NCBI GenBank assembly: GCA_902580765.1
Contig: CACHLW010000003.1
Coordinates: 8,168 to 72,167 of the forward strand
Direction of reading: 5' to 3'
Length of the DNA stretch: 64,000 bases
Origin: an uncultured Alphaproteobacteria bacterium
GTDB lineage: Bacteria > Pseudomonadota > Alphaproteobacteria > HIMB59 > GCA-002718135
This document shows positions 35,883 to 59,750 of the stretch, in pieces. The notes beneath the pieces were generated by a model. That model did no database searches. It was not told where the DNA came from and saw nothing but the letters and a program-made list of their open reading frames with translations. Both the position numbers and the translations under genes were made by a program. Positions within the stretch are counted from its first letter, which is position 1, and every line of letters begins with the position of its first letter.

Positions 35883-35890
35883 ATATCTTA

Positions 35891-35924: not shown

Positions 35925-35937
35925 AAAATAAAAAAAT

Positions 35938-36918: not shown

Positions 36919-36920
36919 AG

Positions 36921-37658: not shown

Positions 37659-37672
37659 TTTTGGGAGGAATT

Positions 37673-40126: not shown

Positions 40127-41659
40127 ATGAAGAAGAAAAAAGAATTAAAAATCTCTAGACGTACAGTTATGAAAGGAGCTCTTGCTGCGGGTGCAATGAT
40201 GTCAGCAGGATCTATACCTTCAAAACTATTTGCTGGAGAATTTAATATTCCTGATCCACTAAAACCATTACCAACAACTGGTGGTAATATGCGATGGATT
40301 GATAGTGGTGACATGAAAGGTGTCTTTTGGAAAAAATTATTTCCAGAATATGCAGCTTCAAGAGGTATCACTATTGAATATGATGGTTTGCCATGGAAAG
40401 AAATAAATAAAATTGTTCCAATTGCTATAAGAAATGGAACTGTTCATGATGTATTCCAATTACCGATAGGAATGGATCCGGGTGTTGCAGTATCTGAAGG
40501 TTGGGTGCAACCATGGGATGACTACATTGAAAACATCGACGAATGGTTAGGTGCGTTTCCTAGTGGTGTTTATCTTCCTGGTGTCAACCAATTCAATGGA
40601 AAGACCTATGGAACATGTTTAACAGCAAATAAGAGAACGGGAACTTGTCTTCTGTATAGTGAAAAATATATGAGTGAAGCTGGTTATGATCCTCAAGCTG
40701 GTCGTATGACATATTCTGAAATCAGAGATGCTGCTAAAAAAATTACTAAAAATGGTAATGGTCAGTATTATGGTTGGATCATTGGTGGAAACCAAGTTAA
40801 TCGATGGGAAGATGTTGTCCATACATTTGGACAAGTAGGTGGAGCACATAGTGGAAGAGGTGGTTTTACAAATAGACACATTAACTTCCAAAATGGTAAA
40901 TTCCAAATTGCATCTGATCAATATATGGAAGCAGTTGAATTACTTCTTCAATTAAAATCAGATGGAAGCGCTTTCCCAGGAGTTATGAGTATGAATGCTC
41001 CTCAAGCTAGAGCTTTGATGCCACAAGGTGCAGCAGGAATGATATTCCAAGGTCCTTGGTGTATTGGAGTTTGGGGAAGAGATGCTCCAGATTGGAAATA
41101 TGGTATTGCAAGTGAACCAGTTCCAGATGGAAAAGAAGCACAACCACTTTACATTGCAGAAGGTGGATCAAATACTTTTTGGTTAAGTGCTAATAGTACA
41201 ATGGGACCATTTGCTGGTGACCTGATTAGATTTATGGGAACTGAGCAAGGTCAAATTTACTGGGCTCAAACTGTTGGTGCCGCAGATCCAGCTGTTAATC
41301 CAGATGCAGTTGCTAAAGCTGGTTTAACCGGACCATCAGCACAAGCTTTAGCTATGTTTGCTGAAAACATACTTGTTGGACCTAATCCAATTGTAAGAAA
41401 TAAAGATGTTGGTATTGTAGCTGCAAAGTCTAGAGTACCAGATCCTTCTTTGGCTCTAGTTATTCAAGGGTTGTATACTGGACAACTTAAAGGTGTGGAA
41501 GCACAGCTTAAAGATTGTAATCAAAGGTATGAAGATGCTCTTGATAAAGCTGTTGAAGAGGCAAGAGCAGACGGTGCTAATGTAACTCGTGATGATTGGG
41601 TCTTCCCTAATTGGGATGTATACTCAAATTACGGTGCTGAAAAGTATCAAGAACTTTAA
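40127..41659 (+). CDS. Large CUT1-type substrate-binding protein with twin-arginine (TAT) signal
   Basis: 510 aa. N-terminus MKKKKELKISRRTVMKGALAAGAMMSAGS carries an S-R-R-x-V-x-K TAT motif. SD GGGAGGA. Confidence 0.8.
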   Translation: MKKKKELKISRRTVMKGALAAGAMMSAGSIPSKLFAGEFNIPDPLKPLPTTGGNMRWIDSGDMKGVFWKKLFPEYAASRGITIEYDGLPWKEINKIVPIAIRNGTVHDVFQLPIGMDPGVAVSEGWVQPWDDYIENIDEWLGAFPSGVYLPGVNQFNGKTYGTCLTANKRTGTCLLYSEKYMSEAGYDPQAGRMTYSEIRDAAKKITKNGNGQYYGWIIGGNQVNRWEDVVHTFGQVGGAHSGRGGFTNRHINFQNGKFQIASDQYMEAVELLLQLKSDGSAFPGVMSMNAPQARALMPQGAAGMIFQGPWCIGVWGRDAPDWKYGIASEPVPDGKEAQPLYIAEGGSNTFWLSANSTMGPFAGDLIRFMGTEQGQIYWAQTVGAADPAVNPDAVAKAGLTGPSAQALAMFAENILVGPNPIVRNKDVGIVAAKSRVPDPSLALVIQGLYTGQLKGVEAQLKDCNQRYEDALDKAVEEARADGANVTRDDWVFPNWDVYSNYGAEKYQEL

Positions 41660-41670
41660 ACAAAATATCT

Positions 41671-41701
41671 AAAGGCGAATTTTTTAAATTCGCCTTTTTT
41701 T
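41671..41701 (+). terminator. Hairpin plus T-tract between SBP and permease genes
   Basis: aggcgaattt-ttta-aaattcgcct stem followed by 7 T. It ends 4 nt before the permease ATG. Confidence 0.65.
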
Positions 41702-41704
41702 ACT

Positions 41705-42619
41705 ATGCACAAAAAACCTCTATCTAAACAAATATATGATGCAAGATGGTGTTACCTATTTGTTTTACCATGCTCAATTCTTACAGGAATGTTTGTCATT
41801 TATCCTATTGGAATGTCTTGGTATTTTTCTTTATTAGATTGGAGTGGTTTTACAAAAGAAGCAAAATTCATTGGCCTTCAAAATTATTATGAAGCTGTTA
41901 ATGATGAATTCTTTTGGGATGCATTCATTCGTTCTTTTATTTTTATGTTTGGAACAGTTCCAGTAAAAATTGTTTTAGGATTTATAATTGCAGTATTTTT
42001 AAATAATCAAGTTTTGAAACTTGCTCCTTTCTTTCGTACTGTAATCTTTATGCCTGTAGTTACTGCAATTGCTATCATTGGTATTGTAATGACTTTTGTA
42101 TTTAGCCCTTTTAATGGACCTGCTAATAAATTTTTAATGTCTACTAATTTAACTTCTGCTCCAATTGATTTTCTTGGAAACCCAGATACGGTGCTTCCAA
42201 CTGTAATGGGAGTGTATGTTTGGAAATGGCTAGGGATAACTATGATGTATTGGCTTGCTGCTTTACAAACAGTCCCACAAGATGTTTACGATGCCGCAAA
42301 AATTGATGGTGCTGAAGGATATAGATTATGGATCCATATTATTTTACCTATTGTACTACCTTTTGCTATTGTCATTATTCTTGTGGAGGCAGTTGGAGCA
42401 CTAAATGTTTTTCCTTTAATTGAAACTATGACTGCTGGAGGACCATTCTTTAGTAGTGAAGTTATGGAAATATATATTTTTAGAACAGCTTTTGTAACTG
42501 ATTCTGGAACAATGCCTAGGCTTGGATACGCTTGTGCTGCAGGAGTATTTTGGGGTGTTGCTGTTTTATTTATTACAGTTCTTCAGGGATTATGGATGAG
42601 GAGAACTCGAAGAATATGA
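41705..42619 (+). CDS. CUT1 ABC permease (MalF-like)
   Basis: 304 aa, 6 TM. EAA loop DAAKIDGAEGYRLWIHIILP. Confidence 0.85.
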   Translation: MHKKPLSKQIYDARWCYLFVLPCSILTGMFVIYPIGMSWYFSLLDWSGFTKEAKFIGLQNYYEAVNDEFFWDAFIRSFIFMFGTVPVKIVLGFIIAVFLNNQVLKLAPFFRTVIFMPVVTAIAIIGIVMTFVFSPFNGPANKFLMSTNLTSAPIDFLGNPDTVLPTVMGVYVWKWLGITMMYWLAALQTVPQDVYDAAKIDGAEGYRLWIHIILPIVLPFAIVIILVEAVGALNVFPLIETMTAGGPFFSSEVMEIYIFRTAFVTDSGTMPRLGYACAAGVFWGVAVLFITVLQGLWMRRTRRI

Positions 42620-43467
42620 GTAGATACTTAAATTTTATTGCTGAAAAAAACCAAGTTAAATATTTAATTATAACTATAGCTTTTATTATTTTCTCTTTCT
42701 TTTGGATCTATCCATTACTGTGGGTACTTTCAGCCTCTTTCAAAACAGATTTTGAAATTTGGGGAGGCTTAGGTTTAATCCCTGACCGGCTTGTTTGGGA
42801 AAATTTTGAAAGAGCATGGTTTGGTGCAAACATGGGTAGGTATTTTTTTAACACACTGATTATTACAGTTGTTTCTGTAATTATAGTTGTCGTAACAACT
42901 GGTATGTTTGGTTATGTAATTGGAAGATATTCTTTTCCAGGAAAAAAAATACTTATTGGAATTTTAATTAGTACAATTTTTATTCCTCAAGGTTACACAA
43001 TTATTCCTGTTTTTGATTTATTAAATAATTTAAATATTTCTAAAAACTTAATTGGACTAACACTCGCAACGGCAGGACACACCCCTGTAATTTATATTTT
43101 ATTATTTGCAGGATATTTTTCAAGAGTTCCTGTGGAGCTTGAAGAAGCAGCTAAAATGGATGGAGCGGGTTTTGTTCGAACATTTATTTCAATCATGTTA
43201 CCTTTAACAAAACCAGTAGTAGCTACAGTTTCTATTCTACAAGTTTTACATGCATGGAATGACTTTTTATTACCAGTCGTTATCACTCTAGGTAATCCTG
43301 ATATACGAACACTATCCGTAGGTGTGTACGCTTTTAAAGGCGAATACTTTGTCGATTGGTCTGGTATGGCAGCTGCATCTGTTATAACTATTTTGCCTAT
43401 AATTATATTGTTTTTGTTTATGCAAAAATATTTCGTTGAAGGTGTTCAAGGAGCTGTAAAAGGGTAA
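42616..43467 (+). CDS. CUT1 ABC permease (MalG-like)
   Basis: Start moved to the ATGA overlap (MSRYLNF...). EAA loop EAAKMDGAGFVRTFISIMLP. Confidence 0.85.
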   Translation: MSRYLNFIAEKNQVKYLIITIAFIIFSFFWIYPLLWVLSASFKTDFEIWGGLGLIPDRLVWENFERAWFGANMGRYFFNTLIITVVSVIIVVVTTGMFGYVIGRYSFPGKKILIGILISTIFIPQGYTIIPVFDLLNNLNISKNLIGLTLATAGHTPVIYILLFAGYFSRVPVELEEAAKMDGAGFVRTFISIMLPLTKPVVATVSILQVLHAWNDFLLPVVITLGNPDIRTLSVGVYAFKGEYFVDWSGMAAASVITILPIIILFLFMQKYFVEGVQGAVKG

Positions 43468-43469
43468 AG

Positions 43470-45011
43470 ATGAAAAGACCAAATATTTTATTAATAACTT
43501 CCGATCAACAGCATCACGATACCATTGGAAAATTTAATTCAAAAATACAAACACCGTATTTAGATAAGCTTTGTAATGAAGGAATGAATTTTACAAGAGC
43601 TTATTGTCCATCACCAGTTTGCACACCATCAAGAGCAAGTATTATTACTGGACAATATCCGTCTTCTCATGGAGCTTGGACAATTGGTGTTAAATTAGAT
43701 GAAGAAGTAGAAACTATTGGAGAACTGTTATACAAAAATGGTTACTCTACTGGTTTAATTGGTAAAGCGCATTTCCAGCCATTAACTTCAGTTCCAGGTC
43801 AGGAATCTATAGAAGGACAACCAACGTTAAGAGATTTAGAATTTTGGAAAAATTTTAAAGGACCTTGGTATGGCTTTGAACATATTGAGCTAGCACGTAA
43901 TCATGCAGATGAAAGCCATGTAGGTCAACATTATGCAATTTGGATGGAACAAAACGGTCTTAGTGATTGGAAAGAATATTTTCAACCAGTGCCTGGTGAA
44001 ACTTCTAAATATGCTCCTCCAATTGCTCGTGAATATGACTACTGGGCAAGACCGGATAGAATTTGGAAGTTAGACGAAAAACATCATTACACAAATTGGA
44101 CAGCCGAAAGATCAATTGAATTTTTAGATCAACAAAAAGATGACAAGCCATTTTTTCTTTGGACAAGCTTTCAGGATCCACATCCACCATATGTATTAAG
44201 TGAACCATGGGCATCAATGTATAATCCAGAAGACATGTCACCTGGAACGTTAAAAGAAGGTGAACACGAATTAAATCCACCACATTTTGGCAAAACACAA
44301 ACGACAAATCCTGATTTCGAGAATTGGCATTCACCATTTAATGCTCATGGATGCATGAGTCATCTGTATCCTATGGAAGAATTAAAAAAAGACATGGCAA
44401 TTTATTATGGCATGGTTAGTTTTATGGATAAGAATATTGGAAAAATTATTAATAAGTTAGATCAAATGGGTGAACTTGATAATACCATAATTATTTTTAC
44501 TACTGATCATGGTCACTTTATAGGACAGCATGGTTTAATTGCTAAAGGACCTTTCCACTATGAAGATATGCTCCGTTTACCTTTTATTGTTAGATGGCCA
44601 GATAAAGTTCCTCAAAATTCATCATCTTCATCTTTATTGAGTTTAGTTGATCTTGCGCCAACATTTTTAAAAGTCGCGGGCATTGATATACCAACCCAAA
44701 TGCAAGGAGTGGATCAAACGGATGTATTTTATGGCAACAAGGACAGTATCCGTTCACATATATTTGTTGAAAACAGACATAATCCAAGAATGCCACATTT
44801 AAAAACTTACATAAATGATAATTATAAAATTTCTATTTACCGAGAAGCTAACTACGGTGAACTTTTTGATTTAGAAAATGATCCAAACGAATATAATAAT
44901 TTATGGGATAATACAAACGCACAAACATTAAAAAAAGATTTATTATTTAAGTTTGCGCAAGCCACATTAAAAGATGAAACATCAAAAATGAAAAGAGTTT
45001 CAGGCGCTTAA
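43470..45011 (+). CDS. Cys-type sulfatase (S1 family), no signal peptide
   Basis: 513 aa. ILLITSDQQHHD metal site and CTPSRASIITG fGly motif (Cys codon at 43620). GKAHF and TTDHGH blocks. N-terminus MKRPNILL has no leader. Confidence 0.85.
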   Translation: MKRPNILLITSDQQHHDTIGKFNSKIQTPYLDKLCNEGMNFTRAYCPSPVCTPSRASIITGQYPSSHGAWTIGVKLDEEVETIGELLYKNGYSTGLIGKAHFQPLTSVPGQESIEGQPTLRDLEFWKNFKGPWYGFEHIELARNHADESHVGQHYAIWMEQNGLSDWKEYFQPVPGETSKYAPPIAREYDYWARPDRIWKLDEKHHYTNWTAERSIEFLDQQKDDKPFFLWTSFQDPHPPYVLSEPWASMYNPEDMSPGTLKEGEHELNPPHFGKTQTTNPDFENWHSPFNAHGCMSHLYPMEELKKDMAIYYGMVSFMDKNIGKIINKLDQMGELDNTIIIFTTDHGHFIGQHGLIAKGPFHYEDMLRLPFIVRWPDKVPQNSSSSSLLSLVDLAPTFLKVAGIDIPTQMQGVDQTDVFYGNKDSIRSHIFVENRHNPRMPHLKTYINDNYKISIYREANYGELFDLENDPNEYNNLWDNTNAQTLKKDLLFKFAQATLKDETSKMKRVSGA

Positions 45012-45027
45012 TTAAGAAAGGATAAAG

Positions 45028-46527
45028 ATGAGAATTTTATACGTAGACATAGACTCTTTAAGACCTGATCATTTAGGATGCTATGGTTATCATAGAAACA
45101 CATCTCCTACGATTGACTCAATAGCAAAAGAAGGAGTCAAGTTTACAAATTTTTATTCAACAGACACACCGTGCTTACCTAGTAGAACTGCTTTGTTCGG
45201 TGGCAATTTTGGTTTCAAAACTGGAGTCGTTAATCATGGCGGTGAATTCTCTGATATTGCTCCTAGAAAAAATATTTGGAATAGAGAATTTAAAGGCGGT
45301 TTAAGAGGAGAATATGCTTTTACATCTCTTGGTAAAGTTCTTCGAGATGCAGGATATTATACAGCAAGTATTAGTCCTTTTCCTGAAAGACATACAGCTT
45401 ATCAAGTTTGGTTTGGTTTTACCGAAACGTATGACACTGGAAAAGGTGGTTTAGAAAATGCTGATGAAGTCTACCCTGTTATAAAAAAGTGGTTAGAAAA
45501 TAATGGAGAAAAAGAAAATTGGTTCTTACATGTAAATATGTGGGATCCTCATACTCCGTATGATACGCCTGAAGACTTTGGAAATCCTTTTAAAGATGAA
45601 CCTATTGAAGATTGGGTGACAGAAGAATTAATTAAAAAACAAAGGAATAGTTTTGGACCGCATAGCGCCAGAGAAGTTCCAGGATTTGATGAAGATCTTG
45701 GAGGAAAGTATACAATGGGGGTGGGCGAAATTAAAAATACTTCTGATGCTAAAGAGCAAATTGATGCATATGATACTGGAATTAAGTACGCTGATTTTTA
45801 TTTAAATAAAGTTTTTGAAGACTTAAAAAAAATGAACCTTTGGGATGATACAGCAATAATTATTTCAGCAGACCATGGAGAGAATCAAGGCGAGTTAAAT
45901 GTATGGGGAGATCACCAAACAGCTGATCATATAACTAATAGAGTTCCATTAATAATTAGATGGCCGGGGATAACAGATACAAATACAGGAAGTACTGTAG
46001 AAAATAAATTTTATAATTTAGATTTAACTTCAACTATTTCTCAAATTACTTCATCTTCACAACCTGATAGATGGGATGGTATTAATTTCACTGAAAATTT
46101 AACTAATAGTAAATCATCAAATGGAAGGGATTATTTAGTTATTAGTCATGGTGCTTGGAGTTGTCAAAGATCCGTAAGATGGGATAATTGGTTACTGATA
46201 AGAACGTACGACACTGGTTTAAAAGATTTTCCAAAATATATGCTTTTTGATATTGAAAAGGATCCTCATGAGTTGAATAACCTAGCAGATCAGCATAAAG
46301 ATCTCGTAGCACATGGAATGTTTTTAATCGATGAGTGGATTGAAGAAAATATGTATGAGGCTGATAGAGGAGATCCACTTCAAGGTGTAATTAGAGAAGG
46401 CGGTCCTCATCATGCAAATATTTATTCAAAAGTCTGGAATACATATGTTGAGCGTCTTGAAAAAACAGATAGAAAAAAACACGCTGACAATCTTAGGAAA
46501 TATAAAGGAAAACCTTTTAGTAAATAA
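45028..46527 (+). CDS. Cys-type sulfatase (S1 family), no signal peptide
   Basis: 499 aa. YVDIDSLRPD, CLPSRTALFGG (Cys codon at 45172) and SADHGE. No leader. Confidence 0.8.
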   Translation: MRILYVDIDSLRPDHLGCYGYHRNTSPTIDSIAKEGVKFTNFYSTDTPCLPSRTALFGGNFGFKTGVVNHGGEFSDIAPRKNIWNREFKGGLRGEYAFTSLGKVLRDAGYYTASISPFPERHTAYQVWFGFTETYDTGKGGLENADEVYPVIKKWLENNGEKENWFLHVNMWDPHTPYDTPEDFGNPFKDEPIEDWVTEELIKKQRNSFGPHSAREVPGFDEDLGGKYTMGVGEIKNTSDAKEQIDAYDTGIKYADFYLNKVFEDLKKMNLWDDTAIIISADHGENQGELNVWGDHQTADHITNRVPLIIRWPGITDTNTGSTVENKFYNLDLTSTISQITSSSQPDRWDGINFTENLTNSKSSNGRDYLVISHGAWSCQRSVRWDNWLLIRTYDTGLKDFPKYMLFDIEKDPHELNNLADQHKDLVAHGMFLIDEWIEENMYEADRGDPLQGVIREGGPHHANIYSKVWNTYVERLEKTDRKKHADNLRKYKGKPFSK

Positions 46528-46539
46528 ATCTAAATCATA

Positions 46540-47907
46540 ATGAATATTAAATCTAAACCAAATATTATTGTATTTTTTACTGATCAACAACGTTGGGATA
46601 CTTCTGGTTTACATGGCAATCCATTATCCTTGATGGAGAACTTTGATCATTATGCAGTTGAAGGTACACATCTTTATAATTCATTTACATGTCAACCAGT
46701 TTGCGGGCCTGCAAGAGCTTCATTACAATCAGGAATGTATGCAACAAAAACTGGATGTTTTAAAAATAGAATACCTTTAAAAAAAAATATTAAAACTCTT
46801 GCAAAATATCTATCAAAAGAAGGTTATGCCACTGGATATATTGGAAAATGGCATCTAGGCTCTTCTGAACCAGTTAAAAAAGAGGATAGAGGTGGTTATG
46901 ATTATTGGTTGGGATCAAATCTATTAGAATTTACTTCTGATGCTTATGAAACATATGTTTATGATGGACAAAATAAAAAAGTATTTCTTCCAGGATATAG
47001 AGTTGATGCAATAACTGATGCAGCTATAAATTTTATAAAACTAAATCAAAAAAAACCATTTTTTCTTTTTATTTCTCTTATTGAGCCACATCATCAAAAT
47101 AATACAGATGATTATCCACCACCTATTGGATACAGAGAAAAATATACAGGCAAGTGGTCTCCTCCAGATCTTTCATCTCTGGTTGGATCTTCTCCTCGCC
47201 ATTTAGGAGGTTATTATGGAATGGTGAAGAGAATAGATGAAGCTTATGGCAGAATGATTGATGTTATTAAAAGTTTAAAATTATTTGATGATAGTGCCAT
47301 TATTTTTACATCAGATCATGGAAATAATTTTAAAACACGAAATAGAGAATATAAACGTTCATGTCATGAAAGTTCAATACGGGTTCCTACATCTTTGATT
47401 GGAAATGTCTTTCAGCAAGGTGGACGTATAAAAGAACTAACTAACATTCTAGATATTCATGCAACAATATTAGATTTGGCAAATGTCAAAAATACCTCTC
47501 ATTGTGATGGTAGATCAGTATTGCCTTTAGTGAATAAAACTTCCAAAAAATGGGAAAACGAAATTTTTATCCAAATTAGTGAAAGTCAATTAGCTAGAAG
47601 TTTAAGAACTGAAAAATGGAAATATTGTATTGCTGATCATGATTCTAATGGGAGTGATAAACCTTCATCTGATCAATACACGGAAACAAATTTATATGAT
47701 CTCGATGCTGATCCGTATGAATTAAATAACTTAATTGGTATTAGTACTTATGATGAAATAGTAACATCCTTAAGAAAAAAGATTAAAAGTAAAATTAAAA
47801 AAGTTGAAAATATAACAACTAAAATTACAAAAGCTAAAAATGTAATTAATCCTGGTCAAATGGGATTAAATCCTGATTCTTTTCACAGATTAAAGAAAAA
47901 ACTTTAA
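46540..47907 (+). CDS. Cys-type sulfatase (S1 family), no signal peptide
   Basis: 455 aa. FFTDQQRWD, CGPARASLQSG (Cys codon at 46702), GKWHLG and TSDHGN. No leader. Confidence 0.85.
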   Translation: MNIKSKPNIIVFFTDQQRWDTSGLHGNPLSLMENFDHYAVEGTHLYNSFTCQPVCGPARASLQSGMYATKTGCFKNRIPLKKNIKTLAKYLSKEGYATGYIGKWHLGSSEPVKKEDRGGYDYWLGSNLLEFTSDAYETYVYDGQNKKVFLPGYRVDAITDAAINFIKLNQKKPFFLFISLIEPHHQNNTDDYPPPIGYREKYTGKWSPPDLSSLVGSSPRHLGGYYGMVKRIDEAYGRMIDVIKSLKLFDDSAIIFTSDHGNNFKTRNREYKRSCHESSIRVPTSLIGNVFQQGGRIKELTNILDIHATILDLANVKNTSHCDGRSVLPLVNKTSKKWENEIFIQISESQLARSLRTEKWKYCIADHDSNGSDKPSSDQYTETNLYDLDADPYELNNLIGISTYDEIVTSLRKKIKSKIKKVENITTKITKAKNVINPGQMGLNPDSFHRLKKKL

Positions 47908-47938
47908 TAATTTTTTTTTTCGTATTAATCTAATTTTT

Positions 47939-49447
47939 ATGAAAACGGTTTTCCTTTTGTTTGATTCATTAAATAAAAGAATGTTAAATTCTTATGGTGG
48001 TAAATATATTGAAACACCAAATTTTAACCGATTAGCAGAAAAATCAGTTCAATTTAATAATCATTATATTGGAAGTATGCCATGTATGCCTGCAAGACGT
48101 GATATGCATTCAGGACGATTAAGTTTTTTGCACCGTGCATGGGGTCCCTTAGAACCATTTGATAATTCATTTCCAGAAATCTTAAGACTTAATAATACAT
48201 ATACTCATCTTGTGACTGATCATTATCATTACTTCGAAGATGGTGGCGCAACGTATCATAATAGATTTAATTCTTGGGATTTTATTAGAGGACAAGAGAG
48301 TGACCCATGGAAAGCTATGGTTCAACCGCCTCTTGAAAAACTGAGAGAAAAATATCATCAATCTCAATTAAATCTAACTGATAGGGAAACAGGTTATTAT
48401 CGTTATGCAATCAATAGTGAGTTTATTAAAGAAGAAAAAGATTTTCCTTCCGTCAAATGCTTTCAATCTGGATTAGATTTTATTAATATCAATAAAGATG
48501 CAGATAACTGGTTCCTTCAATTGGAAACTTTTGATCCCCATGAACCTTTCTTTGCACCTGAGCGCTTTAGAGAAAAATTAAAAACTAATTACAAAGGTCC
48601 AAGATTAGACTGGCCTCAATATGACCGGGTTAAAGAAACGGATGATGAAGTTGCCGAATTAAAAGCTAATTACATTGCTCTAATTGGTTTATGTGATTAC
48701 TTGCTTGGCACTGTCTTAGATTATTTTGATGAAAATAATTTATGGGATGACACCGCATTGATTTTAACTACTGACCATGGTTTCATGCTCGGTGAACATG
48801 ATTGGTGGGCTAAAAATAGAATGCCTTTGTATAATGAAATTGCAAACATACCTTTTTATTTTTATCACCCTGAATACAAACAATACTCAGGCAAGCAAAG
48901 AAATGTTGTAACGCAAAATATTGATTTAATGCCAACATTCATGACAATGCATGGTCACAATCTTCCTAAAGAGGTTAAAGGTAAATCTATATTAAACTTT
49001 CTGGACAAAGACAGTGAAAATGAGCATTTTGCTTTGTATGGATATTGGGGCGGAGGAATAAATATATCCGATGGAAATTATACATATTTTCATTTCCCAG
49101 AAAATTTTGATCAATATGACAGAAGTAGATTTCAATATACATTGATGCCAACTAATATGAGGCAATTTTTTTCATACGAAGAGTTACAAACTGCAACTAT
49201 GCATGAACCTTTTGATTTTACGAAAAACATACCAGTAATGAAAGTAAACAAAATTCTTAGAAAAACTGATCCTCATAAATCTTTGGTAGATACTGAAAGT
49301 GCACTCTATGATTTAAAAAAAGATCCAGGTCAATTAAGTCCACTTAATGATATTTCTTTAATGACAAAATATAAAAATATTATGTTGGAAGAAATTAAAA
49401 ATTACGATCCTCCAGAAGAACTATTAAAAAATTATTTTAATATATAA
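47939..49447 (+). CDS. Cys-type sulfatase (S1 family), no signal peptide
   Basis: 502 aa. LLFDSLN, CMPARRDMHSGR (Cys codon at 48083) and TTDHGF. No leader. Confidence 0.8.
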   Translation: MKTVFLLFDSLNKRMLNSYGGKYIETPNFNRLAEKSVQFNNHYIGSMPCMPARRDMHSGRLSFLHRAWGPLEPFDNSFPEILRLNNTYTHLVTDHYHYFEDGGATYHNRFNSWDFIRGQESDPWKAMVQPPLEKLREKYHQSQLNLTDRETGYYRYAINSEFIKEEKDFPSVKCFQSGLDFININKDADNWFLQLETFDPHEPFFAPERFREKLKTNYKGPRLDWPQYDRVKETDDEVAELKANYIALIGLCDYLLGTVLDYFDENNLWDDTALILTTDHGFMLGEHDWWAKNRMPLYNEIANIPFYFYHPEYKQYSGKQRNVVTQNIDLMPTFMTMHGHNLPKEVKGKSILNFLDKDSENEHFALYGYWGGGINISDGNYTYFHFPENFDQYDRSRFQYTLMPTNMRQFFSYEELQTATMHEPFDFTKNIPVMKVNKILRKTDPHKSLVDTESALYDLKKDPGQLSPLNDISLMTKYKNIMLEEIKNYDPPEELLKNYFNI

Positions 49448-49450
49448 GTT

Positions 49451-51511: not shown

Positions 51512-51702
51512 TTGAACAGCTTATTTTATAAATTATTAAATTTAAATAATTTTTTGAAAAAAATTTAAAATAAAAAATTAAGTAATTCTCTAATTTTTTC
51601 TATATTCTTAAACTGATTGTAACATACAAAAACATTCAAAAAGTATTTATTTTTGGCTCTTTTATGCTAATTTCTCCTTATCTTAATAAGGAGGAATGTA
51701 AG

Positions 51703-52986
51703 ATGAAATATTATTTTAGTCGAATATGGGCTGGTATATTAATTACTTTACTTTCTTTTTCATTCACTAGTAGCTCTTATGCAATTGATATTAAACTTTG
51801 GGATCTTTCTGCAAGACAAGGTCAAGATGAGTTCTATGAATTATTAAAGAAAGAAGTTAAAAAATATAATCCAGATATTAATGTTATTGTAACCGAGTGG
51901 GAAGGTGAGGCATATAAAACTCAAATTCAACTTGCTCTTAATGGTGACGATGGACCTGATGTCTTCTTTAACTGGTTTGGTGAAGATAGTGCAAGACTAG
52001 CAAGAGCTGGTTTAGCACTCGATCTTACACCTTACGCTGATATGGAAGGTGGATATGGAAACTTCATAAGTAAAGGTTGGCAAGATGCTGGTGCAGTAGA
52101 TGGAAAAATTTATGGTATTGCTAATAAAGCAGTTTCAAAATACTTCTATTACGATCCTGCATTCTTTGATCAACATAACTTATCTGTTCCTACAACATTT
52201 GGAGAGTTAATTGATACTTGTAAAAGTATAAAAGCAATAGACCCTTCAATCGTTCCATGGCCAATGGGTAATTCTGAGAGATGGAAATTAAACCATGTTA
52301 TTACCATGCTTAATCAAAGAGTAGTAGGAGCAGAAAATACAAAAGCAGATTATGCGTTAACTGCACCCGATGATGAATTATTCACAAATCCTAAATATGT
52401 TGAAGCTTGGGAAAAAGTTGTTGAACTAAATGAAAATTGTTTCAATGATGCACCAAATGCAACTAATCCAGAATTAACGAGATCTATGTTTGCAGCTCAA
52501 ATTTCACCTATGATGTATTGTGGAACTTGGTGTGGAGGTATTTTCGCTTCTGAAGGTTTCACAGATTTTAAAATGTTTAGATTTCCACGTGTTGAAGGTG
52601 GAGCTGATGATGGAACTGTAGGCTTTCTAGTTGCAGAAGGAATGCAAGTATCAGCAAAAACTAAACATCCAGAAGCAGCAGCTTTGGTAGCATCAATTAA
52701 TGTATCTGATACTATGGCTTTAGCTGATGCTGAGTTGAGAGGTAGTTTGATATCAAATGCAACTTTAATTGATCAACTGGAAGATGCTCCTCATTGGTTT
52801 ACATTTTATGTCAATGATATTGCTGACAAAAGTGGACATGTAAATGTTTTAGATGTTCTTTTAGAAGCAAATGTATCTAATGCTTATCTTGATATGGGAA
52901 CTGAAGTTCTTAATGGAACAAAATCTCCTCAAGAAGCAATGGATTTCATTAGAAAAGTTGCTTTAGAAGCTAAAGCAGCAATGTAA
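51703..52986 (+). CDS. CUT1-type substrate-binding protein (Sec signal)
   Basis: Start set at ATG 51703 behind AAGGAGGA (MKYYFSRIWAGILITLLSFSFTSSSYA-IDIK). SBP_bac_1-like. Confidence 0.8.
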   Translation: MKYYFSRIWAGILITLLSFSFTSSSYAIDIKLWDLSARQGQDEFYELLKKEVKKYNPDINVIVTEWEGEAYKTQIQLALNGDDGPDVFFNWFGEDSARLARAGLALDLTPYADMEGGYGNFISKGWQDAGAVDGKIYGIANKAVSKYFYYDPAFFDQHNLSVPTTFGELIDTCKSIKAIDPSIVPWPMGNSERWKLNHVITMLNQRVVGAENTKADYALTAPDDELFTNPKYVEAWEKVVELNENCFNDAPNATNPELTRSMFAAQISPMMYCGTWCGGIFASEGFTDFKMFRFPRVEGGADDGTVGFLVAEGMQVSAKTKHPEAAALVASINVSDTMALADAELRGSLISNATLIDQLEDAPHWFTFYVNDIADKSGHVNVLDVLLEANVSNAYLDMGTEVLNGTKSPQEAMDFIRKVALEAKAAM

Positions 52987-52992
52987 TAAAAA

Positions 52993-53025
52993 AATTTCGG
53001 CTATTAAAAATTAATAGCCGAAATT
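52993..53025 (+). terminator. Intra-operon hairpin after SBP gene
   Basis: aatttcggctattaa-aaa-ttaatagccgaaatt forms a 15-bp stem with a weak T tract. It ends 6 nt before the permease ATG. Confidence 0.5.
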
Positions 53026-53030
53026 ATCAT

Positions 53031-53936
53031 ATGAATAAAACTCAAACAAACTCAATTGGTTTTTCTTTATCAAGTGATAGGGTATCCGTTATTATTCTCT
53101 TAATTCCAGCTCTAATATTTTGTACAATATTTATATTTATTCCAGCATTTTGGGCCATAGTTGGATCCTTTTATAGTTATGGGATGACTTCTCTTAATGA
53201 TTGGAAATGGGTTGGCTTTGATAATTATATTAAAGCATCCCAGGATGAATTTTTTTGGATTGCATTAAAGAATAACTTTATAATTGTTTTTGCGTCAATC
53301 GTTCTTCAAGTAGGTGTAGGGACAATACTAGCAGCAATCCTAGATCGAGGAATAAAATATGGAAAAGTAATTTTTCGAACTATTATATTTACACCAATGG
53401 TCATTTCATCTGTTGCAGTAAGTATAATTTGGTTACTAATTTATGATCCAAATTTTGGAATTTTAAACAACATATTAATAGCAATAGGTTTGCCCACACC
53501 TTCAATGGGATGGTTGGGAGATCCTGATATATCTATTTGGATGATTATGATTGTTGCGGGCTGGCAAAATACTGGATTTATGATGGTTTTAATCTTAGCT
53601 GGTTTACAAGGAGTTTCTAAAGAAGTTTATGATGCAGCAGAGATAGATGGTGCAACGGGTGTAAAAGCATTTTGGTATATTACTCTTCCAATGATTAGAA
53701 ATATTATAATTGTTGCAATTTTGATAACAACTATTGGTGCATTTAAAGTATTTGAATTTGTTTATGTCTTAACCCAAGGTGGTCCATCGAATGCAACACA
53801 AGTATTAGGAACATATATTTATTTACAAGCATTTAATTTATTGCATATGGGTTATGCCAATGCTTTGTCAGTTGTACTATTAGTTATTGCTTTAATTTTA
53901 GGTTGGTTTCAACTTAAAGCAAGTAGGAGAGCATAG
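53031..53936 (+). CDS. CUT1 ABC permease (MalF-like)
   Basis: 301 aa. EAA loop DAAEIDGATGVKAFWYITLP. Confidence 0.85.
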   Translation: MNKTQTNSIGFSLSSDRVSVIILLIPALIFCTIFIFIPAFWAIVGSFYSYGMTSLNDWKWVGFDNYIKASQDEFFWIALKNNFIIVFASIVLQVGVGTILAAILDRGIKYGKVIFRTIIFTPMVISSVAVSIIWLLIYDPNFGILNNILIAIGLPTPSMGWLGDPDISIWMIMIVAGWQNTGFMMVLILAGLQGVSKEVYDAAEIDGATGVKAFWYITLPMIRNIIIVAILITTIGAFKVFEFVYVLTQGGPSNATQVLGTYIYLQAFNLLHMGYANALSVVLLVIALILGWFQLKASRRA

Positions 53937-54754
53937 TGAGTAAATTTAAGTTAGCTAATATATTTGCTTACGGCTTTGTAACACTCTTTAGTATCTATGT
54001 ACTATTACCAATAATAGTGATGATACTGACAACTTTTAAAACAAGAAGAGAAATTTTTTTAGAACCACTTGGGTTACCAGGTCAATTTAATTTTTCTTCT
54101 TTTGAAAAGGCATTATCTATTGGCCTTGGAGGTTTCATCTTCAATTCTTTCTTGGTTTCATTATTTTCAGTTATTTTAATAGTAATAATTGCAGGGATGG
54201 CTGCCTATGTTCTAGCAAGAATTGATTTTAGAATAAATAGATATGTCTATTTATTAATTGTTGCAGGTTTCGCAATACCTCCAGCAGCTGTGCTTGTACC
54301 ACTTTATGTAACAGTATCAAATTTAGGATTATTAAATAGTATATATGGTGTAGTAATGCCGTTAACTGCATTTGGTATTCCCTTCACCGTTATTTTATTT
54401 TATGCTTTTTTTTTAGATTTTCCAAGAGAAGTTGAGGAAGCAGCCACTATTGATGGTTGTAGTAAAATGCAGATTTTTTTTAGAATTATTATTCCATTAT
54501 CTGGTCCAGCTATTGCTAGTGCAGCAATTTTTCAAACTGTGTGGATCTGGAATGAATTCCTACTAGCCCTAATTATGTTGACATCTGATGAAGTAAAAAC
54601 TTTGCCATTAGGATTAATGAAGCTGAGAGGAGAATGGTCATCTGATTGGCCATCAATTATGGCTGGACTAACTATAGCAATCTTACCAGTTCTTATAGTA
54701 TTCTTGATTTTCCAAAAATACTTTGTAAGATCTTTGGCAGGTTTAGGAAAATAA
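53936..54754 (+). CDS. CUT1 ABC permease (MalG-like)
   Basis: 272 aa. GTG start overlapping the upstream TAG. EAA loop EAATIDGCSKMQIFFRIIIP. Confidence 0.8.
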   Translation: MSKFKLANIFAYGFVTLFSIYVLLPIIVMILTTFKTRREIFLEPLGLPGQFNFSSFEKALSIGLGGFIFNSFLVSLFSVILIVIIAGMAAYVLARIDFRINRYVYLLIVAGFAIPPAAVLVPLYVTVSNLGLLNSIYGVVMPLTAFGIPFTVILFYAFFLDFPREVEEAATIDGCSKMQIFFRIIIPLSGPAIASAAIFQTVWIWNEFLLALIMLTSDEVKTLPLGLMKLRGEWSSDWPSIMAGLTIAILPVLIVFLIFQKYFVRSLAGLGK

Positions 54755-54759
54755 ATAAC

Positions 54760-55038
54760 ATGGCCAAAAGACAAAAAGTTTTAGTTCTCTATTTAAAGTT
54801 ACCAAGCTTAGAAGGAGAAGTAATTTCTTGGGCAACCTTTGATGGCACAGGAAAAAAACTGCATATGACAGGTGATAGTGATGAGCCTCCTTATCCTACA
54901 GGTTTGGATGCCTTGTTAGATGGCTGGAGATTATTCCAAGCAAGTCAAGCCATTCCAGAACATCCAGGTCAAGAATTCAGAACATCGTATTTAAAGCATG
55001 AATTTTTTTTTGAAAAATTAGAAGAAGGAGATTTTTAA
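54760..55038 (+). CDS. Small (92 aa) soluble protein of unknown function
   Basis: Track ORF 54646-55038 trimmed to the ATG 5 nt after the permease stop (MAKRQKVLVLYLKLPSLEGE...). Gly/Pro/Glu/Trp-rich composition, atypical for non-coding AT-rich DNA. Tightly packed (1 nt) before the PhyH-like gene. Confidence 0.5.
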   Translation: MAKRQKVLVLYLKLPSLEGEVISWATFDGTGKKLHMTGDSDEPPYPTGLDALLDGWRLFQASQAIPEHPGQEFRTSYLKHEFFFEKLEEGDF

Positions 55039-55039
55039 T

Positions 55040-55960
55040 ATGGCTAAGTTATTGACAACAGAACAAATGGCTGAATTTGCAAATAGTGGATGTTTATTTT
55101 TTGATGAGTTAATCGATCAACAAACTAATCAGGAATTTTTAGATGATATTGGTCATACAGACATTGATGAAGTTGATAGTGTACAGGATTATTATAGAAA
55201 TATAAAAGCAACTAGCAGTATTCCAAGAATACCAGCAGGAACAAAACTTAAAGATGCTTATCCAAAAGGCTCCCCTTTAGAAAAAATTTTTTCACATGAA
55301 GTTGTCGATGGTGCTATTAAAAGTTTAGTCGGTAGTAACACAATCATTGATCACCAGTTTCTTCATATAACGTTTCCTACCAAATATTTTAAACAAGCAA
55401 ATCAACGCCAGATGTCTCAACAAAATCATCAAGATAGTACAATTGATCCAAGAAGTACTTTTGATGTACAATTATTTTATTTTCCAACAGAGGTAACAAA
55501 AGCAATGGGAGGAACAAGATATCACCCTGGTACGCATTTACGTATTGTTAATGAATTTGGAATTGCAAAATACCAAAATATTTTAGGCCAAAAGAGTATA
55601 GTATGTAAACCTGGTACAATTGGTATTTTTCATAGTGGATTATGGCATGGAGCAGGTGTAAATTTTTCAGAAAATATTCGCTATATGTTTAAAGTGAGGC
55701 TTCAACCCACAGAGAAACAGGAATTACTATGGGATCCTGAAAAAAAATATCAACCTTTGCCAAACCGCGCTCTTTATTGGACTGATGAAAGAAAAGATAA
55801 AACAATAAATGATATTTTAATGAGATCCTATCCTTGGCAAGAAGCAGATACAAATAGATTGGATAAAATAAACGTTGTTAAGTTTTGGAGATTATTGACC
55901 GGTCATAAAAAAATGGATGTTGATTATTGGCTTACTCGGATTGAAAACGAACTATATTAG
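55040..55960 (+). CDS. PhyH-like Fe(II)/2-oxoglutarate dioxygenase (paralog 2, divergent)
   Basis: 306 aa. N-terminal LTTEQMAEFANSGCLFFDELI, NHQDS (H-x-D) and a distal GLWHGAG His. Confidence 0.6.
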   Translation: MAKLLTTEQMAEFANSGCLFFDELIDQQTNQEFLDDIGHTDIDEVDSVQDYYRNIKATSSIPRIPAGTKLKDAYPKGSPLEKIFSHEVVDGAIKSLVGSNTIIDHQFLHITFPTKYFKQANQRQMSQQNHQDSTIDPRSTFDVQLFYFPTEVTKAMGGTRYHPGTHLRIVNEFGIAKYQNILGQKSIVCKPGTIGIFHSGLWHGAGVNFSENIRYMFKVRLQPTEKQELLWDPEKKYQPLPNRALYWTDERKDKTINDILMRSYPWQEADTNRLDKINVVKFWRLLTGHKKMDVDYWLTRIENELY

Positions 55961-57466
55961 TTAAAAATTTCTTTCATCACCTTTTAATGGAACAACATCA
56001 CAAGTTTCTTGGTACCAAGAAAGCATTTTTTCTTTCAAGTTTTTAAGCTCTGATGCATATTGCTGATCATCAATAACATTATTTATCTCTCCTGGATCAT
56101 CAATTAAGTTATAAAGTTCATCTCTTTCGTATGCTCTTTTTATATATTTAAATTTCTTATTTCTGCACATAGTGGCTTTAGTGTGCATCAAAATTTCATC
56201 TTCTTTACCTTGTAAGCTTACTCTTGGGTAATATAAGCCATGAGGTAAATTTAAACTTTGACTTTCACTTGCTTGTCTCTCTAATCTAAGTCTGCCACCT
56301 TCAGTAAATACTTCTTCTCTATGATTATCAGTTTTCTGTTCAATAAAATTTTTTATACTTTTGCCAAAATGCCAATATGAAGGATCGATATTACTGTAAT
56401 CATATATGGTTCCAGCGATATCAATTAACTCAATCATTGTATCACTTACACCATTTAATGTATTTTCACTTTTTGGCGGCTTAATAATAAGAGGAACATT
56501 CGTAAGACAATCTTGAAAAGTATTTTGCGTTTTTTCAACTAAATTATAATCACCTGTAAAGTCACCATGATCAGATAAAAAAATTATTAAAGTATCATCA
56601 TATAAATTATTATCTTTAAGTTGATTGACCAGAAGTCCAAATTGATAATCTACCCTTGCACACATACCAAGATATACCGCTCTTAATTCATTCCAGCGTT
56701 CATCAGTCCAATCTTGCATTCTTTGTCCATCCATTATTCCTTTTAAAAGACTTGGCTTGTCTTCCCAAGTTTTATATTGATATCTATTAGGTATTACGCT
56801 TCGATCAATTGAAGAGAACCATGGATCCTCTACACAGTAAGGAGGATGCGGATAACCAAGTGGTAGAAATAAACAGAATGGTTTATCTTCTTTATAATCT
56901 TTTACAAAATCTAATGCTCCATAAACCATGGACCAATCGTCATCGAAATAAATATCTTTATCTTTTTTATCTAATTTTCCTTTGAAGAAACTATAATAAT
57001 TATCTCCATCTTCAGGCCCTCGCCATAATAGATCTCCCCCATGTGTGCCTGGTTGTTGAGTATAGCCCCATTTTTGATAATCACTATCCGTTGGTTCAAA
57101 GTAAATATCACAATGATTACGGTATCCTTCTTGACCTGCTATTAAATCATTTTTTCCACCCCACCAAATAAAGTAATCTTTATCTTTTAGTTCTGATAAA
57201 ATACTAGAGTCACCTTGATCTGTATGTAACATATAATGCATTGTTCTATGACCATGAACATGTGGATACCAACCAGTCATAAATGAACACCGACTTGGTG
57301 TACAAACTGTTGCTTGGCAAAAAGCATTCTTAAATGCAATTGCATCTTCTTTAATAATATTATCTAAGTTAGGAGTTTGTGCACCAGGATACCCTAGATA
57401 TCCCAGCATATCTCCTCTCCACTGATCAGGGTTAAAAATAACAATATTTGGTTTTTTCTGGATCAT
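55961..57466 (-). CDS. Cys-type sulfatase (S1 family), no signal peptide
   Basis: 501 aa. IFNPDQWRGD, CTPSRCSFMTG (Cys codon 57304-57302) and LSDHGD. No leader. Its stop abuts the stop of 55040-55960 with a 0-nt gap. Confidence 0.85.
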   Translation of the reverse strand: MIQKKPNIVIFNPDQWRGDMLGYLGYPGAQTPNLDNIIKEDAIAFKNAFCQATVCTPSRCSFMTGWYPHVHGHRTMHYMLHTDQGDSSILSELKDKDYFIWWGGKNDLIAGQEGYRNHCDIYFEPTDSDYQKWGYTQQPGTHGGDLLWRGPEDGDNYYSFFKGKLDKKDKDIYFDDDWSMVYGALDFVKDYKEDKPFCLFLPLGYPHPPYCVEDPWFSSIDRSVIPNRYQYKTWEDKPSLLKGIMDGQRMQDWTDERWNELRAVYLGMCARVDYQFGLLVNQLKDNNLYDDTLIIFLSDHGDFTGDYNLVEKTQNTFQDCLTNVPLIIKPPKSENTLNGVSDTMIELIDIAGTIYDYSNIDPSYWHFGKSIKNFIEQKTDNHREEVFTEGGRLRLERQASESQSLNLPHGLYYPRVSLQGKEDEILMHTKATMCRNKKFKYIKRAYERDELYNLIDDPGEINNVIDDQQYASELKNLKEKMLSWYQETCDVVPLKGDERNF

Positions 57467-58797: not shown

Positions 58798-58806
58798 ATA
58801 TTAAAT

Positions 58807-58832
58807 AGAGGGGCAAATAATTTTGCCCCTCT
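58807..58832 (+). terminator. Intra-operon hairpin after SBP gene
   Basis: agaggggcaaa-taat-tttgcccctct forms a perfect 11-bp GC-rich stem. The T-run lies about 13 nt downstream. Confidence 0.55.
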
Positions 58833-58853
58833 GTATAAAAGTTATTTTTTTGA

Positions 58854-59750
58854 ATGATAAAGAAAAACATCACATCTGCATTTGTTGAAAAATATTCCAC
58901 AATAATAATTTTTTTAGTTCCAGCATTAACTTTATTTACTGTTTTCGTTGTTATGCCAATTTTTGAAGCAGCTTATTTTAGTTTTTATCGATGGAACGGA
59001 ATGGGAGCACCAGAAAAATATGTTGGATTTAAAAATTACGCTTTTTTATTTAAGAACGGTATTTTTTTAAATGCTCTGAAAAATAATTTTTGGATTATAT
59101 TTGTTTCACTTTTTATTCAATTACCTTTTGCATTATTTCTCGCACTTTTTTTAGCCAATAATTTTAGAGGAGCTGCTGTTTTTAGAAGTTTGTTTTTTTT
59201 ACCATATATTTTAGCAGAAATTGTTGCGAGTTTGATTTGGGTTTATATTTATAAAGGAGATTATGGATTAGTTGGTGCTATTTGGGGTTTGTTTGGAGCT
59301 GACGCACCTTGGATTACTGCAGACAAAGAGTGGGCATTGACCGCCATACTAATAGTTGTTGTTTGGAAATATTTTGGAATACATATGATGATTATGATCT
59401 CAGGTCTTCAAGGAATATCAAAAGAAGTAATAGAGGCTGCAAAAATTGATGGAGCCGGTCCAGTAACTACTGCTTTAAGAATTAAAATACCAATTTTATG
59501 GCCAACAATTACTTTATCTATTTTCCTTTCTACGCTTGGAAGTTTACAACTATTTGATTTAATTATGCCTCTAACAATGGGAGGTCCATCAAATGTTACT
59601 CACTCAATGGTTACTTACTTGTATGATTTTGGTGTTGGAAGAATGAGACTTGGTTTTGGAAGTGCTATTAGTGTAGTAATTTTTATAATTTGTTTTGTCG
59701 TTGCTTTAATTTATCAAACAACAATTTTAAAAGATAAAGGATATAACTAA
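58854..59750 (+). CDS. CUT1 ABC permease (MalF-like)
   Basis: 298 aa. EAA loop EAAKIDGAGPVTTALRIKIP. Confidence 0.85.
   Translation: MIKKNITSAFVEKYSTIIIFLVPALTLFTVFVVMPIFEAAYFSFYRWNGMGAPEKYVGFKNYAFLFKNGIFLNALKNNFWIIFVSLFIQLPFALFLALFLANNFRGAAVFRSLFFLPYILAEIVASLIWVYIYKGDYGLVGAIWGLFGADAPWITADKEWALTAILIVVVWKYFGIHMMIMISGLQGISKEVIEAAKIDGAGPVTTALRIKIPILWPTITLSIFLSTLGSLQLFDLIMPLTMGGPSNVTHSMVTYLYDFGVGRMRLGFGSAISVVIFIICFVVALIYQTTILKDKGYN

Follow-up and report, generated by a model that had tools for sequence, protein, structure and literature searches.

An importer-linked set of five leaderless sulfatases in an uncultured alphaproteobacterium: a candidate scavenging module for sulfated carbohydrates

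In a 64-kb stretch of contig CACHLW010000003.1 from an uncultured alphaproteobacterium (the whole stretch is hereafter called the window), we analyzed a cassette in which the genes for a solute-binding protein (SBP), SBP1, and two permeases of a CUT1-type ATP-binding cassette (ABC) importer are followed by four sulfatase genes, S1 to S4, with a fifth, S5, located further downstream. Given the conservation of these genes across phyla and the neighbourhoods in which they recur, we conclude from sequence comparison that the five sulfatases are an old, co-transferred set tied to a single importer in a carbohydrate context. We consider it probable, at roughly 60%, that the cassette serves to scavenge sulfated carbohydrates of low molecular weight, which would be imported and then desulfated in the cytoplasm. 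This is the best reading of the locus because the cassette is conserved within its lineage, recurs as a module in other phyla, and is accompanied by a GH151 gene and an L-fuconate pathway.

Under this scheme, SBP1, exported by the twin-arginine translocation (Tat) pathway, would bind its ligand, a sulfated monosaccharide or oligosaccharide, in the periplasm, and the two CUT1 permeases would import it intact with a MalK-type ATPase supplied from elsewhere, for which the window contains one candidate. S1-S5 would then remove the sulfate esters in the cytoplasm, each presumably acting on a different position or sugar, and in a minority of genomes a cytoplasmic GH151 exo-alpha-L-fucosidase would release L-fucose into the L-fuconate dehydratase pathway. 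Within this scheme, the identity of the ligand, a shared ATPase, a distinct task for each sulfatase, the way these enzymes are matured and the link to fucose are inferences.

The importer and its five sulfatases

Gene coordinates were taken from the open reading frame (ORF) map of the window and its translations (Table 1), and they reproduce the run of SBP, permease and sulfatase genes described in the initial annotation, including its short gaps, which measure 2, 16, 12 and 31 nt ahead of S1, S2, S3 and S4, respectively. The longest ORF of permease B begins at a TTG at 42532; its start is most likely the ATG at 42616, with a 4-nt ATGA overlap with the permease A stop, as judged from the window translation and from a related contig (L001), in which a product of 283 aa overlaps by the same 4 nt. 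An SBP_bac_1 protein with an export signal and two BPD_transp_1 permeases make up the CUT1 importer. The twin-arginine motif of SBP1 reads SRRTVMKG; its TAT_signal match of 21.6 bits lies under the Pfam cut-off of 22.7, and in the family alignment R11 and R12 are invariant in 42 of 42 homologues. The AlphaFold2 model of SBP1 (pLDDT 85.8, the predicted local distance difference test score) finds its best Foldseek matches among MalE-like oligosaccharide-binding SBPs. A search of this fold for an SBP with a sulfated ligand returned generic oligosaccharide binders alone, and by sequence SBP1 has no close solved relative (best match 5e-8). We presume that SBP1 is the receptor for the sulfated substrate.

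Of the ABC importer proposed initially, the binding protein and both permeases are thus encoded in the cassette, but an ATPase is not. The only MalK-type (CUT1-type) ATPase of the window lies upstream and is probably common to four CUT1 systems, an arrangement that would also supply the SBP2 and SBP3 operons described below, neither of which has an ATPase of its own. The orthologous modules of Oceanicola and Martelella carry their own MalK-type ATPase.

All five sulfatases match the Pfam family Sulfatase (PF00884), with E-values from 1.5e-28 to 3.1e-55, and each contains the SGSH_C C-terminal subdomain. The DHG metal motif is present in five of five, together with an N-terminal DQ or DS. The combination of PF00884, C-x-P-x-R and DHG confirms them as S1-type sulfatases with a Cys-type formylglycine (FGly) motif. 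Their pairwise identity of 21-26% bears out the earlier view that they are mutually divergent and, set against 51-68% identity to their cross-phylum orthologues, rules out a recent duplication. Pseudogenisation is likewise ruled out, by ratios of nonsynonymous to synonymous substitution rates (dN/dS) of 0.02-0.10. A search with S1 gave 6660 homologues, the top full-length ones sharing its length of about 510 aa, and an exact-sequence look-up of S3 returned no record.

Solved structures in the PDB served as a rough proxy for sulfatase subfamily, although these relatives are too distant for specificity to be assigned from them. S1 is distantly related to S1_30 and S1_11 types; the characterised S1_30 activity is that of a carrageenan 2-O-sulfatase, to which S1 of the window is only remotely related. 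The best solved relatives of S2 are 7OZ8, annotated as a choline sulfatase, and 4UPL, and that of S3 is 5G2V, an N-acetylglucosamine (GlcNAc)-6-sulfatase of S1_11 type (2e-32). S4 is closest to the phosphonate-monoester hydrolase (PMH) structures 4UPK, 2W8S and 2VQR, and S5 falls near the 4UP* set of arylsulfatases and PMHs. Curated cut-offs rule out choline sulfatase, PehA and arylsulfatase as equivalogs: S1-S5 score 96-197 bits against choline-O-sulfatase BetC (TIGR03417; cut-off 433) and 97-191 bits against PehA (NF045661; cut-off 900), and none of the five reaches the NCBIfam arylsulfatase cut-off. The best NCBIfam match of S4 is PehA, at 127 bits against the required 900.

The initial annotation held that the sulfatases lack leader peptides, and several features of their sequences support this conclusion and, with it, a predicted cytoplasmic location. 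The nearest in-frame stop lies only 1-15 codons upstream of each start codon, which excludes longer starts with leaders. Their hydrophilic N-termini line up with the point at which the mature catalytic domain begins in solved sulfatases, and the maximum hydrophobicity over 12 residues stays below 0.9 in the sulfatases, compared with 1.4-2.8 in the binding proteins. The glycosidase-like gene 3' of S4 is equally leaderless, with an upstream stop 3 codons away. The accompanying claim that every SBP in the window has a leader fails for one SBP-like protein (18996-20129). In agreement with the earlier reading, no TonB-dependent receptor, SusD, lyase or endo-hydrolase was found among the window ORFs scanned with Pfam; with no SusC/SusD pair or TonB-dependent receptor among these ORFs, and with leaderless enzymes, the locus is not a polysaccharide utilization locus (PUL) of the Bacteroidota type.

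Table 1. Features of the sulfatase cassette, of other loci in the window, and of GH4 genes in related contigs (L numbers; all other positions refer to the window)
Feature	Position	Strand	Basis or description
SBP1, Tat-exported CUT1 solute-binding protein, 510 aa	40127-41659	+	SBP_bac_1 and SBP_bac_8
CUT1 permease A (MalF/UgpA-like)	41705-42619	+	BPD_transp_1
CUT1 permease B (MalG/UgpE-like)	42616-43467	+	BPD_transp_1
S1 sulfatase, CTPSR	43470-45011	+	PF00884, 3e-55
S2 sulfatase, CLPSR, PMH/arylsulfatase-like	45028-46527	+	PF00884, 5e-40
S3 sulfatase, CGPAR	46540-47907	+	PF00884, 1e-47
S4 sulfatase, CMPAR, most divergent of the five	47939-49447	+	PF00884, 1.5e-28
GH151 alpha-L-fucosidase (predicted), 686 aa	49451-51511	-	Pfam GHL6 and GH42-like middle domain
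S5 sulfatase, CTPSR	55961-57466	-	PF00884, 3e-34
MalK-type ABC ATPase	16197-17288	+	ABC_tran and OB_MalK
Non-phosphorylative L-fucose route	22393-26430	+	L-fuconate dehydratase, SDR, diketo-deoxy-sugar-acid hydrolase, FMN L-lactate dehydrogenase
Second CUT1 operon	51664-55960	+	Pfam; SBP2 (Sec leader), two permeases, 92-aa ORF, PhyH2
SBP3 CUT1 operon	57547-63154	+	SBP3 3e-96 to 8XBA (beta-1,3/1,4-xylo-oligosaccharide binder)
PhyH1	37661-38608		PhyH-family iron/2-oxoglutarate (Fe/2OG) dioxygenase
PhyH2	55040-55960		PhyH-family Fe/2OG dioxygenase
Third PhyH	60571-61287		PhyH-family Fe/2OG dioxygenase
GH4 glycosidase	L068 8661-9977
GH4 glycosidase	L039 9438-10913
GH4 glycosidase	L043 4333-5694
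GH4 glycosidase	L071 14783-16138

Conservation within the lineage and across phyla

A genome scan with SBP1 identified about 35 related single-cell loci (uncultured Alphaproteobacteria AG-...) at 88-100% identity, and in marine metagenomes clusters at 96-98% identity comprise 590-788 member sequences. The related single-cell genomes have been placed in the order HIMB59 (AEGEAN-169) and the genus AG-337-I02, or 'Ca. Indicimonas' (PMC11366302 supplement), and the window belongs to this genus as well. Genomes of this genus measure 1.3-1.65 Mb, with a GC content of 27-30%, and 'Ca. Indicimonas' encodes a mean of five sulfatases per genome (range 2-8); the localisation of these enzymes and their link to a transporter lay outside that analysis (PMC11366302).

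The synteny search suggested in the initial annotation recovered the cassette both within the lineage and across phyla. Among the approximately 35 loci compared by tblastn, the order SBP1-permA-permB-S1-S2-S3-S4 is kept in every one that is sufficiently long. The region 3' of S4 is variable and holds GH151, PhyH2 with S5, an SBP2-like gene, or S5 directly; in contig L065, SBP1 through S3 are missing, and S4, GH151, the SBP2 operon and S5 are kept. The dN/dS values of SBP1, permA and S1-S4 lie between 0.02 and 0.10 (about 0.07 for SBP1, 0.02-0.03 for S1, and for S4 about 0.04 in comparisons with most of the related loci but 0.10 with L001), and these are therefore working genes in a modular, recombining region. 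Within one genome pair, L029 and the window (40127-45011), nucleotide identity is 83% for SBP1 and 96% for the adjoining S1, a mosaic divergence that points to recombination inside the module. In some relatives (L001/L002 at 13067-14738, L030 and L034), S2 and S3 are separated by an insert that measures about 2.6 kb and carries a gene for a 556-aa GMC oxidoreductase; these relatives also have a LysR regulator upstream of SBP1, which the window lacks.

Beyond the Alphaproteobacteria, the most complete counterpart is found in a Trueperaceae metagenome-assembled genome (MAG; L068), in which the orthologues of S1, S2, S3, S5 and S4 are 68, 61, 57, 52 and 51% identical, respectively, that of S4 being a partial gene. 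These sulfatases flank orthologues of SBP1, permA and permB (52, 61 and 67%), and LacI and GH4 genes accompany them. Among the partners of SBP1, S1 is the best conserved from phylum to phylum: its orthologues in Oceanicola, Martelella, Granulosicoccus and Trueperaceae share 60-68% identity with it. For permease A, the identity to permeases of the orthologous modules found in other phyla is 53-61%. S2 is 60-62% identical to the gene 3' of S1 in Trueperaceae-type loci, and S3 has orthologues at 53-57% in the Trueperaceae and Thermomicrobiales modules. For S5, orthologues at 50-52% stand beside SBP1-type transporters in the Trueperaceae contig, in Thermomicrobiales (L046) and in an actinomycete MAG (L058); comparative genomics thus places S5 functionally, as far as sequence can indicate, with the SBP1 module.

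Smaller versions of the module occur in Rhodobacterales, Rhizobiales, Granulosicoccus, Chloroflexota and Actinomycetota. The Thermomicrobiales module has the order SBP-permease-permease-S5-S3, and that of the gammaproteobacterium Granulosicoccus is LysR-SBP-permease-permease followed by S1 alone. Martelella and Oceanicola encode further sulfatases beyond S1, and Oceanicola also a GHL6 protein. On a plasmid of Phaeobacter inhibens, LysR, a formylglycine-generating enzyme (FGE), the SBP, the permeases, an S1-like sulfatase and GH4 are found together, with an enolase, SDR and FAA-hydrolase set upstream of the module. All examined SBP orthologues keep the twin arginines, and all examined partner sulfatases are leaderless. 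A Pfam census of 95 flanking ORFs from the non-AEGEAN loci is led by LacI, GH4, xylose-isomerase-like TIM barrels, FGGY kinases and GH51. The module is horizontally shared between lineages. The initial annotation saw in the locus a reversal of the usual exported arrangement; this view is overstated, as the module occurs widely among Alphaproteobacteria, Deinococcota, Chloroflexota and Actinomycetota, and intracellular desulfation after import has precedents.

The candidate substrate and rival explanations

The gene 3' of S4 in the window is, by its sequence, a GH151 alpha-L-fucosidase. Residues 6-686 of its product align with chain residues 33-687 of 6TVK at 2.5e-111, a full-length homology to ALfuk2 of Paenibacillus thiaminolyticus, and the fucosidase Mfuc3, obtained by functional screening, has the same GHL6 architecture. 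In ALfuk2, the nucleophile is D154 and the acid/base E235, with H503 complementing them (PMC10154630). With the tag shifting the numbering by a constant 29, these residues correspond to D183, E264 and H532 of the 6TVK chain, and the window protein has D, E and H at the aligned positions, so that nucleophile, acid/base and His are kept. The characterised enzymes of this kind act on aryl-fucosides and small fucosyl disaccharides, and sulfated compounds are not among their tested substrates.

A possible sink for the released fucose is the non-phosphorylative route listed in Table 1. For its L-fuconate dehydratase, the E-value is 1e-138 to FucD (2HXT/1YEY) and 1.5e-145 to ENOSF1, and the three genes after it match SDR, FAA_hydrolase and FMN_dh, the diketo-hydrolase scoring 376 bits against NF053535. 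Of the sugar routes initially thought to be fed by the sulfatases, that for fucose is upheld by the L-fuconate dehydratase in the window and that for rhamnose is not. A fucose operon has been described for 'Ca. Indicimonas', for which the use of polymeric fucoidan was judged unlikely, and GH151 is listed for a few genomes in the dbCAN table of the same study (PMC11366302). GH151 lies 3' of S4 in the window, L009 and L015 only, and in L065 it adjoins the SBP2 operon.

Genes for NAD-dependent GH4 enzymes stand beside orthologues of S1 both in loci of the Trueperaceae type and on the plasmid of Phaeobacter inhibens, and this recurrence hints that the ancestral substrate was a glycoside other than a fucoside. 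The proposed link to fucoidan or ulvan is not supported, as GH151 follows the cassette in three related loci only and the orthologous modules elsewhere have GH4 or no glycosidase. Fucose-containing substrates are plausible; a version of the favoured explanation that is specific to fucoidan is weaker, since GH151 is an accessory gene and the partner of the module in other phyla is GH4. What remains of the initial proposal of intact import and cytoplasmic desulfation is the location of the enzymes as judged by sequence, their coupling to a CUT1 importer and the carbohydrate context; its fucoidan or ulvan specificity is unsupported.

Several observations weigh against the import and cytoplasmic desulfation of sulfated carbohydrates. 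The closest solved relatives of S1-S5 are distant (1e-23 to 4e-47) and of mixed specificity, and S2, S4 and S5 are nearest to promiscuous arylsulfatase and phosphonate-monoester-hydrolase enzymes. With GH151 beside the cassette in three loci only, and GH4 in its place in other phyla, a sugar other than fucose is conceivable. The cassette has neither an ATPase nor a regulator of its own. Finally, neither FGE nor an anaerobic sulfatase-maturating enzyme (anSME) turned up in the 64-kb window, nor at up to 10 kb from the SBP in the related single-cell loci: a tblastn search that used the FGE of Oceanicola covered the window and all fetched loci, and Pfam scans of window ORFs gave no match to FGE or radical-SAM proteins. 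Among the loci searched, the FGE query matched in Oceanicola alone; FGE adjoins the module in both Oceanicola and Phaeobacter. There is an outside chance that 'Ca. Indicimonas' lacks both FGE and anSME and uses an unknown oxygen-dependent maturation, for which PhyH1 and PhyH2 would be candidates, with the cassette serving a cross-phylum pathway for sulfated glycan fragments. If so, free-living oligotrophs would consume such fragments through that pathway.

The relatives of S2 raise the question of whether the substrates are instead small non-carbohydrate sulfate esters (choline-O-sulfate, or aryl, alkyl or metabolite sulfates), hydrolysed by BetC- or Ats-like enzymes behind an importer whose annotation as a sugar transporter is misleading. 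Its best solved relative, 7OZ8, carries the annotation of a choline sulfatase, all five enzymes give sub-threshold choline-sulfatase and arylsulfatase matches, the GMC oxidoreductase found between S2 and S3 in some relatives belongs to the BetA family, and the minimal Granulosicoccus module comprises one sulfatase and no glycosidase. We nevertheless regard this explanation as unlikely: the choline-sulfatase scores remain far under their cut-off, the transporter is of the CUT1 type with SBP1 modelled as an oligosaccharide binder, the cross-phylum neighbours are LacI, GH4, GH51, GH151 and sugar kinases, and a single small ester would hardly explain five distinct co-inherited sulfatases. Somewhat less likely still is a role in phosphorus scavenging, in which part or all of the set would hydrolyse phosphonate monoesters or phosphodiesters, as enzymes of the PMH/PehA type do, in a phosphorus-poor gyre and with a Ugp-like organophosphate importer. 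Against the proximity of S4 to PMHs and of S2 and S5 to the arylsulfatase/PMH set stands that of S1 and S3 to carbohydrate sulfatases; PehA is the best NCBIfam match of S4 and UgpA/UgpE are among those of the permeases, but the scores fall well short (127 bits against 900 for PehA, about 100 against cut-offs of 300-335 for the Ugp models). Phosphonate use has been reported for AEGEAN-169 (PMC11366302), whereas the module also occurs in soil- and plant-associated bacteria alongside sugar regulators and glycosidases.

Action of the sulfatases outside the cytoplasm, either through signal-less export (for example, by hitch-hiking on the Tat-exported SBP) or because their starts have been mis-called, is very improbable. 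In-frame stops close to every sulfatase start and equally leaderless orthologues in the four other lineages examined speak against it, no precedent is known for five different hitch-hikers on a single SBP, and an importer directly upstream would make external desulfation needless; the idea draws on the invariant Tat signal of SBP1, on the ability of Tat to carry folded complexes, and on the fact that most characterised carbohydrate sulfatases are exported. We give equally little weight to sulfur acquisition, in which the released sulfate itself would be the nutrient, as with the sulfate-starvation-induced Ats genes. The logic of an ABC importer with a cytoplasmic Cys-type sulfatase is shared with Pseudomonas AtsRBC-AtsA, and LysR-type regulators stand beside many orthologous modules, but seawater contains about 28 mM sulfate, the transporter is of the CUT1 and not of the sulfonate/nitrate type, the context is one of carbon catabolism, and five sulfatases would be excessive for sulfur supply. 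These explanations are all less likely than the uptake and cytoplasmic desulfation of sulfated carbohydrates in view of the curated cut-offs, the type of transporter, the neighbouring genes and the in-frame stops that precede the starts.

Comparison with known systems and the remainder of the window

Egan et al. 2016 reportedly describe how Bifidobacterium breve UCC2003 takes up GlcNAc-6-sulfate intact and desulfates it with an intracellular sulfatase. The ats2 system of this organism resembles the proposed one in the uptake of an intact sulfated sugar, its intracellular desulfation and a cross-feeding reliance on other degraders. It differs in having one sulfatase, a co-encoded anaerobic maturase and a Gram-positive gut anaerobe as host, as opposed to five Cys-type sulfatases, a CUT1 importer with a Tat-exported SBP, no maturase at the locus and an aerobic marine oligotroph. 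A passage of PMC8966484 cites Egan et al. 2016 (PMC5086555) for the B. breve UCC2003 ats2 glycosulfatase cluster.

Further comparison can be made with systems of sulfate-ester hydrolysis in other proteobacteria. In Pseudomonas, with AtsRBC and AtsA, and in Sinorhizobium, with BetC (PDB 6FNY and 6G5Z), import is followed by cytoplasmic hydrolysis of the sulfate ester. They share with the window an ABC-imported ester and a leaderless Cys-type S1 sulfatase in the cytoplasm, but use another transporter family, act on non-carbohydrate substrates and serve sulfur or osmolyte purposes, and the window proteins score far under the corresponding cut-offs. The alphaproteobacterial arylsulfatase and PMH structures (4UPH, 4UPI, 4UPL, 4UPK, 2VQR and 2W8S), which are leaderless FGly enzymes, rank first or close to first among the solved relatives of S2, S4 and S5; they are nevertheless distant (1e-18 to 3e-33), and a link to an importer is undescribed for them. 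Bacteroidota PULs for fucoidan, carrageenan and ulvan, and the systems of Verrucomicrobiota and Planctomycetota, likewise combine several distinct S1 sulfatases with exo-glycosidases, but they rely on exported sulfatases, SusC/D or TonB uptake and endo-enzymes, none of which is found in the window.

Intracellular desulfation after import and the sulfatase count of 'Ca. Indicimonas' are already known. What appears to be undescribed is a conserved CUT1 module that joins a Tat-exported SBP to as many as five leaderless sulfatases in a fixed set and that is shared across phyla and abundant in a streamlined oligotroph; a literature search joining cytoplasmic sulfatase with ABC transporter gave no match. 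Sulfated algal glycans such as fucoidans are seen as slow-turnover carbon of Bacteroidota, Verrucomicrobiota and Planctomycetota with exported sulfatases. In the lineage studied here, about 10 kb of a genome of about 1.5 Mb is given to the importer and five sulfatases under strong purifying selection, which suggests a scavenger guild that consumes sulfated fragments released by these exported-sulfatase specialists. Cultivable carriers of the module include Phaeobacter inhibens, Oceanicola granulosus, Martelella and Granulosicoccus, so the substrate and the five specificities are directly testable. If confirmed, the SBP1 family would constitute a new receptor class for sulfated sugars.

Between GH151 and S5, the second CUT1 operon is divergent from the GH151 gene, and the same block adjoins GH151 in L065; its binding protein, SBP2, matches the xylo-oligosaccharide SBP 4G68 at 7e-31. 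SBP3, which the initial annotation listed for screening against sulfated oligosaccharides, is by its match to the xylo-oligosaccharide binder 8XBA not an obvious receptor for such sugars. Further genes of the SBP3 operon encode PhyH together with a GFO/IDH/MocA oxidoreductase and with ThuA, and this set suggests a route in which glycosides are oxidised (3-keto). Each of the three PhyH dioxygenases in the window forms the 3' end of a sugar ABC operon: PhyH1 lies upstream of the cassette, and the tail-to-tail pair of PhyH2 and S5 is kept in most related single-cell loci.

Upstream of the cassette, the region 27859-37658 contains IolD, which scores over its NCBIfam cut-off, two CUT2 (Peripla_BP_4) ABC systems and GFO/IDH/MocA dehydrogenases, and this content suggests an inositol catabolic block. 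The leaderless SBP_bac_8 protein mentioned above (18996-20129) is encoded in a deoxy-sugar-acid cluster, beside MaoC dehydratases and a family III CoA-transferase, and looks like a cytoplasmic SBP-like protein. Near the start of the window, a pair of tRNA-Leu(CAA) genes (3171-3260 and 4627-4716) forms a 90-nt direct repeat, 99% identical, with its copies 1456 nt apart. A 344-aa ORF between them (3448-4482) has no Pfam match, and the repeat may reflect a tRNA-targeted insertion or a local duplication.

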